A stretch of DNA of 19,368 nucleotides from a virus. Taxonomy: Duplodnaviria; Heunggongvirae; Uroviricota; Caudoviricetes. A program made the translations under genes and the position numbers. Numbering within the stretch: the stretch's first letter is position 1; each line of letters begins with the position of its first letter. The stretch lies in the IMG/VR virus record IMGVR_UViG_2737471862_000006. One strand, 5' to 3'. The notes beneath the pieces are model-generated. The model saw only the letters and a program-made list of their open reading frames with translations. It did not search any database and was not told the origin of the DNA. Of the stretch, positions 1,345 to 17,816 are shown in pieces.

Positions 1345-1595
1345 AGCCTCACCTCCGCACGGAACGGATGGCATAGTTATTATGTGTAGGCTTTCAGACA
1401 CATCAATCAGAGCCTTAATTGATATATATGCTGGAGACGATGCAATATAAAAAGCTCGCCGTAGCGAGCTAATGAAATGTATTTCTCTGATATTATGTTT
1501 ATTTGTATTAGCTCAGACTTGACATCACAGGTTTCGTATATAGAACATCATCAAATCTGTCAGTTTGCTATGAATGAGATATAGTAATTGAAGAG

Positions 1596-1991
1596 CTAAC
1601 CTCGCATGTCAAAGCCAGATTTCTGAAAATCTCTGTAGACTTCCGGATTGTTGAAGGCCGGAAATTTGGCTTTATGAGCTGCGGACTTTATCGCTTCGCA
1701 ATAGGCTTTATCACCGTTACTGGTAGATATTTTTAACGCCGTGCCATCCTGAGAGAATTCCATATGCAACCTGCATTTTTTCCCTTTCCAGTTATGCGGC
1801 TCATCAAGTTTGGCATTAATTGCAGCTCTGATTCCCCGCGCTTGCGCCCCCCATTCATCCTGATCATCCCAGCGTCCTGAACTGCAACTACCTGTAGCAG
1901 TAGTTTTGTGGCAATCTGAAGGGTGTAAAGGTGTGCATCCCGCAACAAAACCGACCCAAAAAGTCAACATAACGATTTTCTTTAATCCCAC
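1596..1991 (-). CDS. Lipoprotein with TolA C-terminal-domain (domain III)-like tail, 131 aa
   Basis: GTG start with SD GGAG; signal peptide plus lipobox FVAGC; C-terminal GKKCRLHMEFSQDGTALKI...YCEAIKSAA...FPAFNNPEVYRDFQKSGFDM follows the TolA domain III pattern (GK.C.L....G.LL.I...LC.AA....P.PP...VY..F....DF). Confidence 0.7.
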   Translation of the reverse strand: MGLKKIVMLTFWVGFVAGCTPLHPSDCHKTTATGSCSSGRWDDQDEWGAQARGIRAAINAKLDEPHNWKGKKCRLHMEFSQDGTALKISTSNGDKAYCEAIKSAAHKAKFPAFNNPEVYRDFQKSGFDMRG

Positions 1992-2141: not shown

Positions 2142-2570
2142 TCAGGGTTTAAAATCCAGCACCCCATTTTGAAATACTTTATATACTTCCGGCGAAGGGG
2201 GGGCAGGTATATCAGCATTCTTTATCGCATTCATCGCTTCACGACATAAATCGAGGTCTCCACTTTCTCTTTTAACCTCCAGTAGAAGGCCATTCGGGGC
2301 CATATGCATTCTCAGTGTACACTCTTTTCCTGAATACTTACTCGCATCCCCGAACTGTTTTTCGATGGCGCTCTTGATTTGATGGGCATACAGACGGATA
2401 TCCTCACTAACATCAGAAGTACGTTCAGATGAACTCACATACTGTGTCTCTATTGCTTTATCGGAGTAATATGATGTACGGTCATGATAATTTGTCGATA
2501 CAGCATCAGTGCACCCGATAATAATCCCACTAATAATCAACGTAAGAATTGATGCGCTACGAAAACCCAT
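2142..2570 (-). CDS. Lipoprotein with TolA C-terminal-domain (domain III)-like tail, 142 aa; paralogue of 1596..1991
   Basis: ATG with SD GAGG; lipobox IIGC; C-terminal ~80 aa (HQIKSAIEKQFGDASKYSGKECTLRMHMAPNGLLLEVK...LCREAMNAIKNADIPAPPSPEVYKVFQNGVLDFKP) closely resembles the C-terminus of E. coli TolA as I recall it (...GQIKSAIESKFYDASSYAGKTCTLRIKLAPDGMLLDIK...PKPPSQAVYEVFKNAPLDFKP). Confidence 0.7.
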   Translation of the reverse strand: MGFRSASILTLIISGIIIGCTDAVSTNYHDRTSYYSDKAIETQYVSSSERTSDVSEDIRLYAHQIKSAIEKQFGDASKYSGKECTLRMHMAPNGLLLEVKRESGDLDLCREAMNAIKNADIPAPPSPEVYKVFQNGVLDFKP

Positions 2571-2733
2571 TTTTCCTCACATATGTCATATAGTAAAGGA
2601 TTATATATACCGTTGTTTTGGACGCTCAAACAGCGAATCAGATCAAATAAAACGCACATTTGTTAACATTTACACAAAGTCTGCGTGGGATATTCTGAAA
2701 GAATATCCATAATGTGGAGAGAATCTATTGAAG

Positions 2734-2838
2734 TGCATGGTGCCGGGTGCCTCCCGGTGAACAAAATGTTCGTGATACCTGTCGGCGACAGAAAAGGTTA
2801 ATGGTATCACCCCACCGCACAGGGGGATTCACCATGCA
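2734..2838. other. Compact ~105-nt cluster of nested inverted repeats (candidate structured RNA or DNA site)
   Basis: Outer 9-bp perfect stem TGCATGGTG (2734-2742) / CACCATGCA (2830-2838) enclosing hairpins CCGGG-tgcct-CCCGG (2743-2757), GAACA-aaa-TGTTC (2759-2771), GTGATACC...GGTATCAC (2772-2779 / 2803-2810) and CCCC...GGGG (2810-2813 / 2822-2825). Confidence 0.35.
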
Positions 2839-3158
2839 GGAGTTTTCTTAGCAAACTCACTGCGCGCCCGGCAACTCCCAACCACATAAAATGCGGAGTT
2901 TGTGGCATTTATGCATATAACTCGCAGGAATTATCTTAAAAAACTGATGTCGATCCGGATTAAAAAGAAGCAGGTCATCATCAGATGACTGGAAAAAAGG
3001 AAAACAAAAAATACTCATCATACAGTTTTGATTGCAGGGATGAGCCTGCTATGCACAATATGCAGAATATAAGCAAGATAAAAATATGCAGGCATATTAT
3101 TTCGGATTTTGTTATTAACACAACCTTTTTAATAATCATTTGGCATACAATAAACCAG

Positions 3159-3614: not shown

Positions 3615-4157
3615 TCAAGCCATTTTCTCAGCAAATGATTCACGCATGGGAATATATAGGGCATACTCAGCAACAGCTAACCAATTAGCAATCCGTTTTT
3701 CGCATGTGCTAAAACACCACTCTGGGTGTGCATCATTTAGCAATTCAGCCATTTTGCGCTTAGTCATCCCCCGCCCTTCATAGCGTTGCCGGAGAATGCA
3801 AATCAATCCTGGATGCTCTGCCAGCACCTCACTTATGACTCGATCAATACATAACGCCTCTGCATCAGTACAATGCGCCAGCCAGCTCTTTTGCTTGCCG
3901 TTGATCATCTCTCGCAAAAACGCTTCCAGCTCAGCTTTCTCTATTCCCGCTTTTTTCATTCTGCGCAGGGCTTCATTAATGGCTGTTTTCGTCAGTTTTT
4001 TGGATGCCAACAACTGATTGAACATATTCCCTGACCTGCCACCGCCAATATACGACCAGCGCCCCCACATACGTAGTTTTCCCTGAATCCAGACACTTTC
4101 CAGCGTGGTGAGGCGAAGGTGTTCTCCGCTTTTTCCTGTATTCGTTGGGTAAATCAT
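3615..4157 (-). CDS. Putative late-gene antiterminator (Q-like), 180 aa
   Basis: Call rests on position (last gene before a terminator/promoter-like leader and the lysis cassette, after ybcO-like nin genes) and basic, Cys-containing composition; ATGA overlap with the upstream gene. No sequence match recalled to lambda Q itself. Confidence 0.5.
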   Translation of the reverse strand: MIYPTNTGKSGEHLRLTTLESVWIQGKLRMWGRWSYIGGGRSGNMFNQLLASKKLTKTAINEALRRMKKAGIEKAELEAFLREMINGKQKSWLAHCTDAEALCIDRVISEVLAEHPGLICILRQRYEGRGMTKRKMAELLNDAHPEWCFSTCEKRIANWLAVAEYALYIPMRESFAEKMA

Positions 4158-5410: not shown

Positions 5411-5801
5411 AGTAGCCACATGATAAGTTGCTGGAATCATATTTCCCACTCAAGTCATTAACATTTGATAAGATATATCTAAAAGGACGCCTTTACATTA
5501 TTTATGCGTATATAATTTATTTATATACACAGTAAAGGTATCCTGGGAAAATATTTATCGTTAAAAAATACATCATAAATAATTAAGCTGAAATTTCAGA
5601 ACATAACTAATACACACAATAAGGTTCAGTAACAGTAATCTATGTGGACTACATCGAGATTTTTTGATTAAACTTTAATAACTTATTCCTAACACACAGA
5701 ATGCATAAACTAAAAGTAAAACAAATAGTTATACGAAAAACAACCATATTTATTCTATCTTCTCCTCTAATCAACATATCAATTATGTGTTTCATAACAG
5801 C

Positions 5802-5841
5802 TTGACATAACCCTCCAAAAGATGCATTTTTAATGCATGTT
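5802..5841 (+). promoter_or_regulatory. Candidate promoter (-35 TTGACA at 5802-5807) with NsrR-type operator (5819-5841)
   Basis: AAGATGCATTT-T-TAATGCATGTT matches the 11-1-11 NsrR inverted-repeat consensus (AAGATGCATTT-N-AAATGCATCTT) at 21 of 23 positions and overlaps the predicted -10 region, immediately upstream of the yeaR-like RBS. Confidence 0.55.
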
Positions 5842-5856
5842 TTGGAGGAGGTGGTT

Positions 5857-6195
5857 ATGACACACAAGAGAATTCCTAAAGATTGGGTAATCAAACGCTC
5901 AACTCCGTTCTTCACAAAAGAGAACGTACCTTCAGCGTTATTAACACATCATAATACAGCAGCAGGTGTTTTTGGGCAGTTGTGCGTAATGGAAGGCACT
6001 GTAACATATTATGGTTTTACTGATGAGAATGCTACTGAACCGGAGATAAAAGTAGTCATTAATGCTGGCGCTTTTGCAACAAGCCCACCACAATACTGGC
6101 ACCGTGTTGAACTAAGCGATGATGCTCAGTTTAATATTAACTTTTGGGTCGCTCCAGACTTTTCGGGCGAAAAAGTCTATAGCACCAAAAAATAG
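5857..6195 (+). CDS. YeaR-like DUF1971 protein, 112 aa
   Basis: ATG at 5857 preceded by SD GGAGGAGGTGG; resembles E. coli YeaR as recalled (RSTPFF, MEGTVTYYGF..E..AEPE, FNINFWVAP). The track ORF begins 24 nt upstream at a weaker start. Confidence 0.6.
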   Translation: MTHKRIPKDWVIKRSTPFFTKENVPSALLTHHNTAAGVFGQLCVMEGTVTYYGFTDENATEPEIKVVINAGAFATSPPQYWHRVELSDDAQFNINFWVAPDFSGEKVYSTKK

Positions 6196-13605: not shown

Positions 13606-13881
13606 ATGATTACCAATTATGAAGCCACTGTTGTAACTACCGATGACATTGTTCACGAGGTGAATCTGGAAGGAAAGCGCATTGGCTACGTAATTAAAAC
13701 AGAAAATAAAGAAACCCCATTCACTGTGGTTGATATCGATGGTCCATCAGGCAACGTAAAAACACTTGATGAAGGTGTCAAAAAAATGTGCCTGGTGCAT
13801 ATCGGAAAGAATCTGCCCGCAGAAAAAAAAGCCGAATTTCTGGCAACTCTAATTGCAATGAAATTAAAAGGTGAAATCTGA
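13606..13881 (+). CDS. racC: RacC, 91 aa
   Basis: MITNYEATVVTTDDIVHEVNLEGKRIGYVIKTENKETPF...; SD AAGGAG; the track ORF begins upstream at 13558. Confidence 0.85.
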   Translation: MITNYEATVVTTDDIVHEVNLEGKRIGYVIKTENKETPFTVVDIDGPSGNVKTLDEGVKKMCLVHIGKNLPAEKKAEFLATLIAMKLKGEI

Positions 13882-13982
13882 AAGAAATAGCCTGCGTATG
13901 GCGCAGGCTATGAACAGTGTGTATCCGGCAAGATCATTCACTGAACAAAACGAATTTTAATCTGAGTTGAGGTTAAAAAACA

Positions 13983-16583
13983 ATGAGCACAAAACCACTC
14001 TTCCTGTTACGGAAAGCGAAAAAATCATCCGGTGAACCTGACGTCGTCCTGTGGGCAAGCAACGATTTTGAATCGACCTGTGCCACTCTGGACTACCTGA
14101 TCGTTAAGTCAGGTAAAAAACTGAGCAGCTATTTTAAAGCTGTTGCCACGAATTTTCCTGTCGTTAATGACCTGCCCGCTGAAGGTGAGATCGATTTTAC
14201 CTGGAGTGAACGCTATCAACTCAGCAAAGACTCCATGACATGGGAACTAAAACCGGGAGCAGCACCAAACAACGCTCACTATCAAGGCAATACCAACGTC
14301 AACGGCGAAGACATGACTGAGATTGAGGAGAATATGCTACTCCCAATTTCTGGCCAGGAACTGCCCATTCGTTGGCTTGCTCAACACGGCAGCGAAAAAC
14401 CGGTAACGCACGTTTCACGCGACGGACTCCAGGCATTACACATTGCTCGGGCTGAAGAACTACCGGCTGTTACTGCCCTGGCTGTTTCCCACAAAACCAG
14501 CCTGCTCGACCCGCTGGAAATTCGCGAACTCCACAAACTGGTTCGTGACACTGACAAAGTTTTCCCTAATCCTGGTAATTCAAACCTGGGACTGATAACT
14601 GCTTTTTTCGAAGCATACCTGAACGCTGACTACACCGATCGAGGACTGCTGACAAAAGAGTGGATGAAGGGTAATCGTGTTTCACACATCACTCGCACGG
14701 CTTCCGGTGCTAATGCTGGCGGCGGAAACCTCACCGATCGCGGCGAAGGTTTCGTACACGATCTGACGTCACTGGCGCGGGACGTAGCCACTGGCGTACT
14801 GGCCCGTTCAATGGATCTGGACATCTATAACCTTCATCCGGCACACGCTAAACGCATTGAGGAAATTATCGCTGAAAATAAACCGCCCTTTTCTGTTTTC
14901 CGCGACAAATTCATCACCATGCCTGGCGGGCTGGATTATTCCCGCGCCATCGTGGTTGCGTCCGTAAAAGAAGCACCAATTGGGATCGAGGTCATCCCCG
15001 CGCACGTCACTGAATATCTGAACAAAGTACTGACTGAAACCGATCATGCCAACCCTGATCCGGAAATCGTGGATATTGCCTGCGGTCGCTCCTCTGCCCC
15101 GATGCCGCAGCGAGTAACAGAAGAAGGAAAACAGGATGATGAAGAAAAACCGCAACCATCTGGAACAACGGCAGTTGAACAGGGAGAGGCTGAAACAATG
15201 GAACCGGACGCAACTGAACATCATCAGGACACGCAGCCGCTGGATGCTCAGTCACAGGTAAATTCTGTTGATGCGAAATATCAGGAACTGCGGGCAGAAC
15301 TCCATGAAGCCCGGAAAAACATTCCATCAAAAAATCCTGTCGATGCCGATAAATTGCTTGCTGCATCACGTGGTGAATTTGTTGACGGAATTAGCGACCC
15401 GAACGATCCGAAATGGGTAAAGGGGATCCAGACTCGCGATTGTGTGTACCAGAACCAGCCAGAAACGGAAAAAACCAGCCCGGATATGAATCAACCTGAG
15501 CCAGTAGTGCAACAGGAACCGGAAATAGCCTGCAATGCCTGCGGCCAGACTGGCGGGGATAACTGCCCTGACTGTGGTGCGGTGATGGGCGACGCAACAT
15601 ACCAGGAAACATTCGATGAAGAGAGTCAGGTTGAAGCTAAGGAAAATGATCCGGAGGAAATGGAAGGCGCTGAACATCCGCACAATGAGAATGCTGGCAG
15701 CGATCCGCATCGCGATTGCAGTGATGAAACTGGCGAAGTCGCAGATCCCGTAATCGTAGAAGACATAGAGCCAGGTATTTATTACGGAATTTCGAATGAG
15801 AATTACCACGCGGGTCCCGGTGTCAGTAAGTCTCAGCTCGATGACATTGCTGATACTCCGGCACTGTATTTGTGGCGTAAAAATGCCCCCGTGGACACCA
15901 CAAAGACAAAAACGCTCGATCTAGGAACCGCTTTCCACTGCCGGGTACTTGAGCCGGAAGAATTCAGTAACCGCTTTATCGTAGCACCTGAATTTAACCG
16001 CCGGACAAACTCCGGAAAAGAAGAAGAGAAAGCGTTTCTGAGGGAATGCGCAAGCACAGGAAAAACGGTTATCACTGCCGAAGAAGGCCGGAAAATTGAA
16101 CTCATGTATCAGAGCGTTATGGCTTTGCCGCTGGGGCAATGGCTTGTTGAAAGCGCCGGACACGCTGAATCATCAATTTACTGGGAAGATCCTGAAACAG
16201 CAATTTTGTGTCGGTGCCGTCCGGACAAAATTATCCCTGAATTTCACTGGATCATGGACGTGAAAACTACGGCGGATATTCAACGATTCAAAACCGCTTA
16301 TTACGACTACCGCTATCACGTTCAGGATGCATTCTACAGTGACGGTTATGAAGCACAGTTTGGAGTGCAGCCAACTTTCGTTTTTCTGGTTGCCAGCACA
16401 ACTATTGAATGCGGACGTTATCCGGTTGAAATTTTCATGATGGGCGAAGAAGCAAAACTGGCAGGTCAGCTGGAATATCACCGCAATCTGCGAACCCTGG
16501 CTGACTGCCTCAATACCGATGAATGGCCAGCTATTAAGACGTTATCACTGCCCCGCTGGGCTAAGGAATATGCAAATGACTAA
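13983..16583 (+). CDS. recE: Exodeoxyribonuclease VIII (RecE), 866 aa
   Basis: Full-length 866-aa ORF with the acidic central region and C-terminal nuclease domain characteristic of Rac RecE; followed by an overlapping recT. Confidence 0.95.
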
Positions 16584-17440: not shown

Positions 17441-17635
17441 ATGAGATATGACAATGTTAAACCATGTCCATTTTGTGGTTGTCCATCAGTAACGGTGAAA
17501 GCCATTTCAGGATATTACCGAGCGAAGTGTAACGGATGCGAATCCCGAACCGGTTATGGTGGAAGTGAAAAAGAAGCACTCGAACGATGAAATAAACGAA
17601 CCACTGGAAATAATAATGGAGGTGTTCATGTATAA
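17441..17635 (+). pseudogene. ralR: ralR toxin (restriction-alleviation / DNase) interrupted by an in-frame TGA at codon 50
   Basis: MRYDNVKPCPFCGCPSVTVKAISGYYRAKCNGCESRTGYGGSEKEALER then TGA (17588-17590), then in-frame NKRTTGNNNGGVHV and TAA (17633-17635); total 64 codons as in K-12 RalR, where this codon is TGG (Trp) by my recollection. Confidence 0.65.
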
Positions 17636-17816
17636 AATTACCGCCACTATTGAAAAGGAAGGTGGCACTCCTACTAACTGGACAAGATATTCAAAATCTA
17701 AACTAACGAAATCAGAATGCGAAAAAATGCTCTCAGGTAAAAAAGAAGCAGGCGTTTCCAGAGAGCAGAAAGTAAAACTGATAAATTTTAATTGCGAGAA
17801 ACTTCAGTCCTCGTGA
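17628..17816 (+). CDS. rcbA: RcbA/YdaC-like protein, 62 aa
   Basis: MYKITATIEKEGGTPTNWTRYSKSKLTKSECEKMLSGKK...; ATG overlaps the end of the ralR frame; SD GGAGGTG. Confidence 0.65.
   Translation: MYKITATIEKEGGTPTNWTRYSKSKLTKSECEKMLSGKKEAGVSREQKVKLINFNCEKLQSS

Follow-up and report, generated by a model that had tools for sequence, protein, structure and literature searches.

The inverted repeats clustered at positions 2734-2838 of a Caudoviricetes sequence are best explained, with good confidence, as belonging to an STnc100 small RNA gene, of which they form the structured core; the gene is encoded on the minus strand of a lambdoid prophage at the Rac position, in the moron slot that follows the Q-like gene and precedes the lysis genes. 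The window, meaning the whole stretch of DNA that was analysed, is 19,368 nt long (IMG/VR record IMGVR_UViG_2737471862_000006). The repeats had been pointed out in a first-pass annotation, and that observation is correct; since the element belongs to an already catalogued family, the finding is ordinary, and a plain Infernal/Rfam pass would label it, which is in itself of small importance. Of some interest is the family, whose copies are found beside Shiga toxin genes, are abundant in lysogens, are bound by Hfq and are present in outer-membrane vesicles. For those who work on STnc100, the window copy provides a natural variant with a nested helix replacing a pseudoknot, and likewise an STnc100 gene that lacks a terminator and is fused to a TolA-like lipoprotein moron. 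The covariation-supported pseudoknot, the nested rewiring and the tandem arrays documented here are modest additions to what is known of STnc100 and PasD.

Inverted repeats and predicted fold

An inverted-repeat search detected the outer arms TGCATGGTG (2734-2742) and CACCATGCA (2830-2838), which are 9 nt long, perfectly complementary and separated by 87 nt, and, inside them, GTGATACC/GGTATCAC at 2772-2779/2803-2810 and CTGTCG/CGACAG at 2779-2784/2786-2791. Three shorter stems, under the length limit of the tool, were read by eye: CCGGG/CCCGG (2743-2747/2753-2757), GAACA/TGTTC (2760-2764/2768-2772) and CCCC/GGGG (2810-2813/2823-2826). The 9-bp perfect outer stem and the further hairpins within ~105 nt were thus found exactly as first described. 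Given that the CTGTCG/CGACAG arms are separated by 1 nt, at most five pairs and a 3-nt loop are possible for this hairpin, which also has one base in common with the 8-bp stem.

The first-pass annotation had suggested folding both strands, an Infernal/Rfam search and a comparison with relatives. The 187-nt minus-strand RNA folded to -63.8 kcal/mol (minimum free energy), corresponding to z = -4.08; 200 shuffles gave no equally stable fold, and the centroid structure included every helix of the 2734-2838 core. The plus-strand fold was nearly equal (z = -3.86), as expected of any set of inverted repeats. The window as a whole holds 30 perfect 9-mer inverted pairs with gaps of up to 100 nt, at ~19 loci, compared to 8.7 +/- 3.8 in shuffled sequence, and when 770 sliding windows were ranked by fold z-score, the 2734-2838 region was absent from the 12 most extreme. 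Fold z-score was dropped as a stand-alone criterion, given that the region does not stand out within the window. Taken alone, the inverted repeats are not exceptional; it is the comparative evidence, namely the Rfam match and the covariation in relatives, that lifts the element above chance.

We also noted three minus-strand 125-nt windows (5769-5893, 13819-13943 and 14244-14368) with fold z-scores of -5.0 to -5.7, based on 15 shuffles and therefore noisy, which are more extreme than any obtained for the STnc100 element (-4.08 for the 187-nt RNA, with the 125-nt windows of the element ranking below the top 12).

Match to STnc100

An Rfam scan of the whole window gave two matches above threshold, STnc100 and RalA (17634-17812). 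The match to STnc100 (RF02076) covers minus-strand positions 2867..2681 and model positions 1-206, with a score of 86.6 bits (gathering threshold 47 bits) and E = 1.1e-17. In permissive E-value scans of the region and of one canonical copy, other Rfam families gave only noise and no riboswitch or cis-regulator was matched. The parts of the element, with helix strands in RNA 5´ to 3´ order, are as follows:

2681..2867, minus strand: full RF02076 match, in which the structured core is preceded by a hairpin and followed by a single-stranded linker and a further hairpin on the 3´ side
2848..2877, minus strand: candidate weak promoter, with -35 TTGCCG (2877-2872), an 18-nt spacer and a TGc-TAAGAA extended -10 (hexamer 2853-2848)
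2734..2838, minus strand: structured core, delimited from sequence, inverted repeats, fold and subfamily alignment
2838-2830 (5´ strand) and 2742-2734 (3´ strand), minus strand: P1, the closing stem
2826-2823/2813-2810, minus strand: P2
2809-2803/2779-2773, minus strand: P3´, UGAUACC with GGUAUCA
2779..2791, minus strand: innermost hairpin CUGUC-GCC-GACAG, probably incidental
2771-2767/2763-2759, minus strand: P4´, the GAACA/UGUUC hairpin
2757-2753/2747-2743, minus strand: P5
2709..2733, minus strand: linker CUUCAAUAGAUUCUCUCCACAUUAU, the single-stranded stretch joining the P1 3´ strand to the 3´ hairpin
2688..2708, minus strand: 3´ hairpin GGAUAUUCU-UUC-AGAAUAUCC, at the position of the terminator in the family

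As in the family, both the P2 block (GGUGAAUCCCCCU..GCGG.GGGG) and the P5 block (CACCGGGAGGCACCCGGCACC) are present in the window copy, and the GGUG/CACC-flanked forms of these blocks (AAUCCCCCU..GCGG.GGGG for P2 and CCGGGAGGCACCCGG for P5) are found there with zero mismatches. The two blocks are invariant or nearly so across 74 diverse representatives, and the P1 closing stem of the window copy consists of nine perfect pairs. Full-length Rfam STnc100 matches also were found in phages mEp460, Stx2a_WGPS6 and H-19B; these score 114-179 bits, compared to 86.6 bits for the window copy, the lowest of the copies examined. The matches in Stx2a_WGPS6 and H-19B start ~75-80 nt past stxB.

STnc100 (RF02076), which many lambda-like prophages of gut bacteria carry, corresponds to EcOnc27 of EHEC Sakai and to sRNA103 of EDL933, located downstream of stx2B, and PasD is a relative. 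In EDL933, 11 STnc100 copies have been reported to be expressed without induction, with one copy (STnc100_4) positive on northern blots and ribosome footprints on some copies (PMC5331693). The copy ~75-80 nt downstream of stxB overlaps the Hfq-crosslinked EcOnc27, which, together with the convergent anti-sRNA AsxR, occupies the moron slot past PR´ (PMC4104026, PMC7873438, PMC12711010). STnc100 has been found in outer-membrane vesicles (PMC12370729), and in a machine-learning study haemolytic uraemic syndrome was predicted by, among other features, sequence variants of the copy immediately past stx2B (PMC12711010). A 2026 Storz-laboratory preprint describes PasD of EPEC as STnc100-related (bioRxiv 10.64898/2026.05.13.724894).

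The window copy shares with the family the invariant blocks, the closing stem, the orientation and the slot leading from the Q gene to the lysis genes. However, while the family is mostly pseudoknotted and has a consensus Rho-independent terminator, the window copy is nested, with P4 cut to 4-5 bp, and instead carries a hairpin that lacks a U tract and is fused to a TolA-like gene. In contrast to EcOnc27, no convergent anti-sRNA of the AsxR/AgvB type was detected beside the window copy in the Rfam scan.

Genomic context

Every gene near the element lies on the minus strand, the same strand as the STnc100 match:

3615..4157, minus strand: Q-like gene with DUF1133 and a marginal Phage_antitermQ match, upstream of the element
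2629-2600, minus strand: promoter-like site TTGAGC-18-TATAAT of the first TolA-like gene
2142..2570, minus strand: first TolA C-terminal-domain lipoprotein gene, the one that STnc100 transcription would reach if not terminated
1596-1991, minus strand: second TolA C-terminal-domain lipoprotein gene
1453..1470, minus strand: first terminator-like site 3´ of the core, past the second TolA-like gene

Genes for a P21-type holin, a lysozyme and Rz also are nearby on the minus strand, and homologues of the Q-like gene are annotated as antitermination protein Q in phage records. Gene calls and domains thus confirm the position first assigned to the element, between a Q-like gene and lipoprotein/lysis genes. 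The same slot arrangement is seen in mEp460, Stx2a_WGPS6, H-19B and E2348/69. In RefSeq, the 1,044 bp that separate the first lipoprotein gene from the Q-like gene carry no annotation.

The window represents, in a more complete form, the Rac prophage adjoining trkG, as in E. coli 13E0767. Of 5426 complete E. coli genomes, 1189 contain a match to the intergenic region, and in 783 the identity is ≥99%. From 2761 to 2571 the window is 100% identical to phage mEp460 (L002 40342-40532) and upstream of this block the two are unrelated, which places a mosaic joint at the P4/P5 border, inside the RNA gene. The identity of the 2761-2571 block suggests that P5 and the P1 3´ strand, which make up the 3´ end of the core, move together with the linker and the gene, and, given the breakpoint at the P4/P5 border, the invariant P5/P1 block seems, from sequence comparison, to serve as a recombination joint for moron swapping.

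Two other features of the prophage were observed. The two paralogous TolA-type lipoprotein genes, situated between the sRNA and the holin gene and bounded by the promoter-like site at 2629-2600 and the terminator-like site at 1470-1453, apparently constitute a moron. The RalA match is to a full-length sRNA (RF02694, 225 bits, minus strand); RalA is the antitoxin RNA of the RalR/RalA type I system, and its presence fits a Rac-type prophage.

Family fold, covariation and pseudoknot

Approximately 190 unique cores were gathered by scanning IMG/VR, and genomes chosen one per species, with sequence patterns; among these genomes, genuine matches were restricted to the Enterobacterales. A genome-wide pattern, AATCCCCCNNNGCGGNGGGG, was too loose, as 79 of the 120 loci retrieved were chance matches in unrelated phyla and 41 had a downstream P5. 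One 388-bp contig labelled Prolixibacteraceae bacterium JC049 (L289) carries a Kosakonia-type STnc100 core, probably due to Enterobacterales contamination of that assembly.

The family layout, 5´ to 3´, is P1, AAU, P2, 2-3 nt, a variable 6-mer, a variable linker, GCG, P4, CA, P5 and the P1 3´ strand. The inner GGUG/CACC of P1 is nearly fixed, whereas its outer pairs covary. P2 (CCCC-UNNGCGGN-GGGG) is invariant, P4 has ~8 bp, and P5 (CCGGG-AGGCA-CCCGG) is nearly invariant, with the compensatory variants CCUGG/CCAGG and UCGGG/CCCGA observed in Pantoea (L318 4679-4804, L322 5061-5177, L354 2147-2274). The 6-mer following P2 is complementary to a 6-mer in the P4 loop, usually ending 10 nt before P5, and the two form a pseudoknot. 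This pairing is absent from the Rfam consensus structure, as it is from the RNAalifold consensus in the part of the 2026 Storz-laboratory preprint available to us.

When 32 cores were aligned with MAFFT without regard to structure, 84.7% of cells were paired, compared to 38-47% after sliding of the 3´ partners. Double changes were observed at 9/9 pairs of P1, 8/8 pairs of P4 and 5/6 pairs of the pseudoknot, levels that none of 500 shuffles reached. For the 74 representatives (<82% identical), a column-based pseudoknot count was dropped because the MAFFT alignment placed gaps in the P4 loop, and a register-free permutation test was used in its place. With a match defined as 6 bp including at most one G-U, the pseudoknot partners matched in 65% of the representatives versus a mean of 16% and a maximum of 28% for permuted partners (1000 permutations), and 47 distinct pairings were seen. 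The compensatory base changes thus found among relatives, together with the invariant segments, indicate that, as judged from sequence, an RNA fold is under selection, comprising a closing P1, invariant P2 and P5, and a central pairing between the segment after P2 and one in or next to P4.

G-U pairs were numerous (for example, 19 at one P4 position in the 32-core alignment). Their frequency, along with the orientation of promoters and terminators, identifies the minus strand as the transcribed strand. A structured RNA was among the options originally listed for the element, and the Rfam match, the covariation and the strand-specific G-U pairs all support it, though neither the transcribed strand nor the already known family had been named.

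STnc100 genes also occur in tandem arrays of 3-4 diverged paralogues spaced ~250-270 nt apart (L025 342-1038, L041 1702-2340, L085 4349-5513, L141 6981-7885 and L014 2320-3356). In several of these arrays each unit has its own terminator, and the neighbours are a tRNA gene (L025) or an isrI-like RNA (L085, L064). We found no mention of the arrays in the portions of the STnc100 literature accessible to us.

A nested subtype

The window copy departs from the family in its central pairing. Here, the strand after P2, UGAUACC (2809-2803), pairs with GGUAUCA (2779-2773), which is located before P4 rather than in its loop, and P4 is reduced to GAAC-AUUUU-GUUC. Because the 3´ partner precedes the shortened P4, all helices are nested and none is knotted, and it is this subtype that accounts for the regular nesting that first drew attention to the element. 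At least three diverged versions of the nested subtype were seen (the window with L165 and L168; L014; and L125, L141 and L232), all of which keep every helix, and the nested-subtype cores in other phages end in a canonical terminator.

In an alignment of the subfamily, P2, P3´, P4´ and P5 were 100% paired, with one C-G to U-A double change in P3´ and an A-U/G-U alternation in P4´; variation within the subtype is small, as the alignment comprises seven distinct sequences and a single double change. Only 71% of cells were paired in the innermost CUGUC/GACAG, which was broken in four of the seven members. This hairpin had been counted among the perfect hairpins of the element, but it is not conserved even in the nearest relatives.

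We tentatively consider, as an idea that could well be wrong, that the STnc100 core may be a pseudoknotted domain whose near-invariant P2, P5 and junctions recognise one conserved Enterobacterales partner (a host or phage protein, a ligand or another RNA), rather than a mere scaffold for a seed. The nested form in the window may then represent the same two stacked helices, naturally rewired through a different strand connectivity. The occurrence of 3-4 paralogues in arrays next to tRNA genes, in which stems covary and seeds differ while loops are fixed, would be consistent with such a role.

RNA ends and comparison with PasD

The element had been placed in the leader of the late operon. Its relatives instead are autonomous genes, with their own sigma-70 promoter, starting the RNA at the first base of the outer stem, and their own terminator. 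In several lineages, a good sigma-70 promoter is found directly upstream (e.g., TTGACA-18-TAAATT), with the predicted start at the P1 5´ end. For PasD1 of EPEC E2348/69, a 173-nt RNA whose size was estimated from RNA-seq coverage and confirmed on northern blots, placing the RNA-seq-estimated 5´ end on the sequence puts it at the first G of P1, 7 nt past TTGACT-18-TAAAAA. A TTGAC(A/T) hexamer ~50 nt upstream of P1 in the E. coli copies was considered as a -35 element and rejected, as no -10-like match is present at the right spacing; the PasD1 5´ end favours a TAAAAA-type -10 closer to P1. The candidate promoter of the window copy has the same spacing as in PasD1, but its -10 fits the consensus at only 3/6 positions and the site was not listed by a promoter scan. 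By analogy, it would start an RNA ~7 nt downstream, at the P1 5´ end (~2837-2838).

At the other end, the 3´ hairpin at 2708-2688 is followed by CACGCAG and no U tract, and it was not listed by terminator scans. Hfq-dependent sRNAs normally need a Rho-independent terminator with a 3´ U tail, which occupies the proximal-face site of Hfq. Given that its 3´ hairpin lacks such a tail, the window copy was not filed as an Hfq-dependent trans-acting sRNA, although its sister copies do belong to this class; the Hfq CRAC data for EcOnc27 and the RIL-seq data for PasD concern these relatives. The terminator-less 3´ module is not confined to the window: the ATG of a TolA-like gene follows at +117 in 43/43 loci, in combination with three different core types.

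PasD1 and PasD2 of EPEC E2348/69, which are homologues of EcOnc13, share P1, a P2-like hairpin, P4 and the pseudoknot pairing of the STnc100 5´ fold (in PasD1, at L359 1761-1933, the pseudoknot is kept as AAUGAUC/GAUCAUU), and they occupy the same position between the Q gene and the holin gene; their promoter geometry is similar to that of the weak candidate promoter of the window copy. In contrast to STnc100, which keeps both elements, PasD lacks the P5 3´ strand and has an altered P2; the loss of the P5 3´ strand may be the reason that BLAST did not link PasD to STnc100. PasD also has a true terminator and a RIL-seq-derived seed, UGUGAG, in the single-stranded stretch between P1 and the terminator (supplement to PMC8550237), neither of which is present in the window copy. 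The seed is absent from the linker, and a PasD-type 3´ part (UGUGAG followed by the GGCUGCGCAUGGCGCGGCC terminator) is absent from 2681-2733. By these sequence features, the window copy is of the STnc100 type and is not PasD. Based on the position of the seed in PasD, we infer that linker 2733-2709 would be the base-pairing region.

Extrapolating from the sister copies, an STnc100 RNA would be made in the lysogen from its own promoter, starting at the first base of P1; the folded 5´ core would act as a stable scaffold or binding domain, and the variable single-stranded stretch past P1 would bear a base-pairing seed that acts in trans with Hfq. In the window copy, where the hairpin without a U tract takes the place of the terminator in the fusion to the TolA-like moron, transcripts may either extend into the TolA-like gene, serving as its leader, or have their 3´ end formed by processing at this hairpin.

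Alternative explanations

The first of these outcomes corresponds to a reading, which we regard as possible but on the whole doubtful, in which the core acts in cis as a structured 5´ leader of the mRNA of the two TolA-like genes, protecting the 5´ end or controlling translation, rather than as a separate sRNA. This reading, which is compatible with the assignment to STnc100, draws on the fact that no intrinsic terminator separates the core from the TolA-like genes (the nearest, at 1470-1453, is past the second gene), on the fixed +117 distance to the ATG irrespective of core type and on the complete identity of the 2761-2571 block in mEp460. However, the TolA-like gene has a better promoter-like site of its own downstream of the core (2629-2600), nearly all other family members precede a terminator and not a gene, and the stable hairpin at 2708-2688 could set a processed 3´ end. 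It is less likely still, and in our judgement improbable, that the element is a decaying, non-functional relic that lost its pseudoknot and terminator through recombination. The lowest Rfam score among the copies examined, the lack of a U-tract terminator, the weak candidate promoter and the mosaic joint within the element all would fit decay, but the nested subtype, of which at least three diverged versions exist, has kept every helix and shows a compensatory change from C-G to U-A; the subtype also occurs elsewhere with a canonical terminator, and all of the invariant family blocks are intact. The presence of the region in 1189/5426 complete E. coli genomes, 783 at ≥99% identity, also speaks against a relic, though recent spread could explain it as well.

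Three further readings are each contradicted by the comparative data, as far as sequences can tell. A recombinase or regulator site in the DNA had been offered as the alternative to a structured RNA, and a conserved linker for lambdoid modular recombination is a variant of the same idea; the near invariance of P2 and P5 across ~190 unique cores and the breakpoint with mEp460 at the P4/P5 border could be taken in its favour. We nevertheless consider it very unlikely, since the compensatory substitutions and the G-U wobbles, which are A-C mismatches on the other strand, are strand-specific, promoters and terminators flank the units in one orientation, and sister copies have been detected as RNAs; recombination at the conserved blocks is likely a side effect and not a selected function. 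Similarly slight is the chance that the element is a cis-regulatory RNA on the late transcript, either a riboswitch-like attenuator or a put-like processive antitermination element, even though it is preceded by two terminators (3535-3510 and 3187-3168) on the path of the late transcript and its family has a complex pseudoknotted fold with invariant loops. The terminator hairpin of the Stx type (GCCCCUC..GAGGGGC) resembles P2, such that an antiterminator pairing can be drawn, but this likeness is not conserved, and riboswitch-type switching was dropped because the terminators of other lineages are unrelated. The tandem arrays, in which each of the 3-4 copies is equipped with a promoter and a terminator, and the estimated PasD1 5´ end at P1, which implies an RNA made on its own, argue against this reading too, as does the lack of an Rfam riboswitch or cis-regulator match in the permissive scans. 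Finally, the program's ORF list includes a 46-aa GTG-start ORF on the minus strand (2670-2810), and some EDL933 STnc100 copies carry ribosome footprints (PMC5331693), but it is hardly likely that the region encodes a small protein: the ORF starts inside the fold, and among relatives the paired positions covary, whereas the central region differs in length and contains indels and unrelated sequence.

Comparison with other prophage RNAs

The slot between the Q gene and the morons or lysis genes also accommodates phage tRNA genes (ileZ-argN-argO in Stx phages), which likewise occur in arrays and which adjoin some STnc100 arrays. With the closing stem stacked directly on a 3´-side 5-bp hairpin, the core layout is what we would take to be loosely cloverleaf-like. 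The element is without a T-loop/D-loop consensus, CCA or anticodon arm, and a tRNA or tmRNA was rejected, as ARAGORN detected none in the window and RF00005 gave no match at E up to 10.

Lambda 6S RNA and StxS, the PR´-tR´ RNAs, resemble STnc100 in being small RNAs produced from the prophage late region in lysogeny, and StxS binds Hfq (PMC7873438). However, they represent the prematurely terminated start of the late transcript, directly past the Q gene, whereas the STnc100 element lies ~700 nt further downstream. These RNAs are without sequence or structural likeness to the element; their counterpart in the window would be the stretch from ~3583 to the terminator at 3535-3510.

By consensus match, a candidate PR´-like promoter is located right past the stop codon of the Q-like gene on the minus strand, with TTGATT (3618-3613), a 17-nt spacer and TTCAAT (3595-3590), and downstream of it is a strong hairpin, AAAAAACCGC-TTAAT-GCGGTTTTTTT, at 3535-3510 (minus strand); a second terminator-like site is found at 3187-3168 (minus strand). 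The PR´-like site and the strong hairpin could possibly yield an RNA of ~60-75 nt resembling lambda 6S or StxS.
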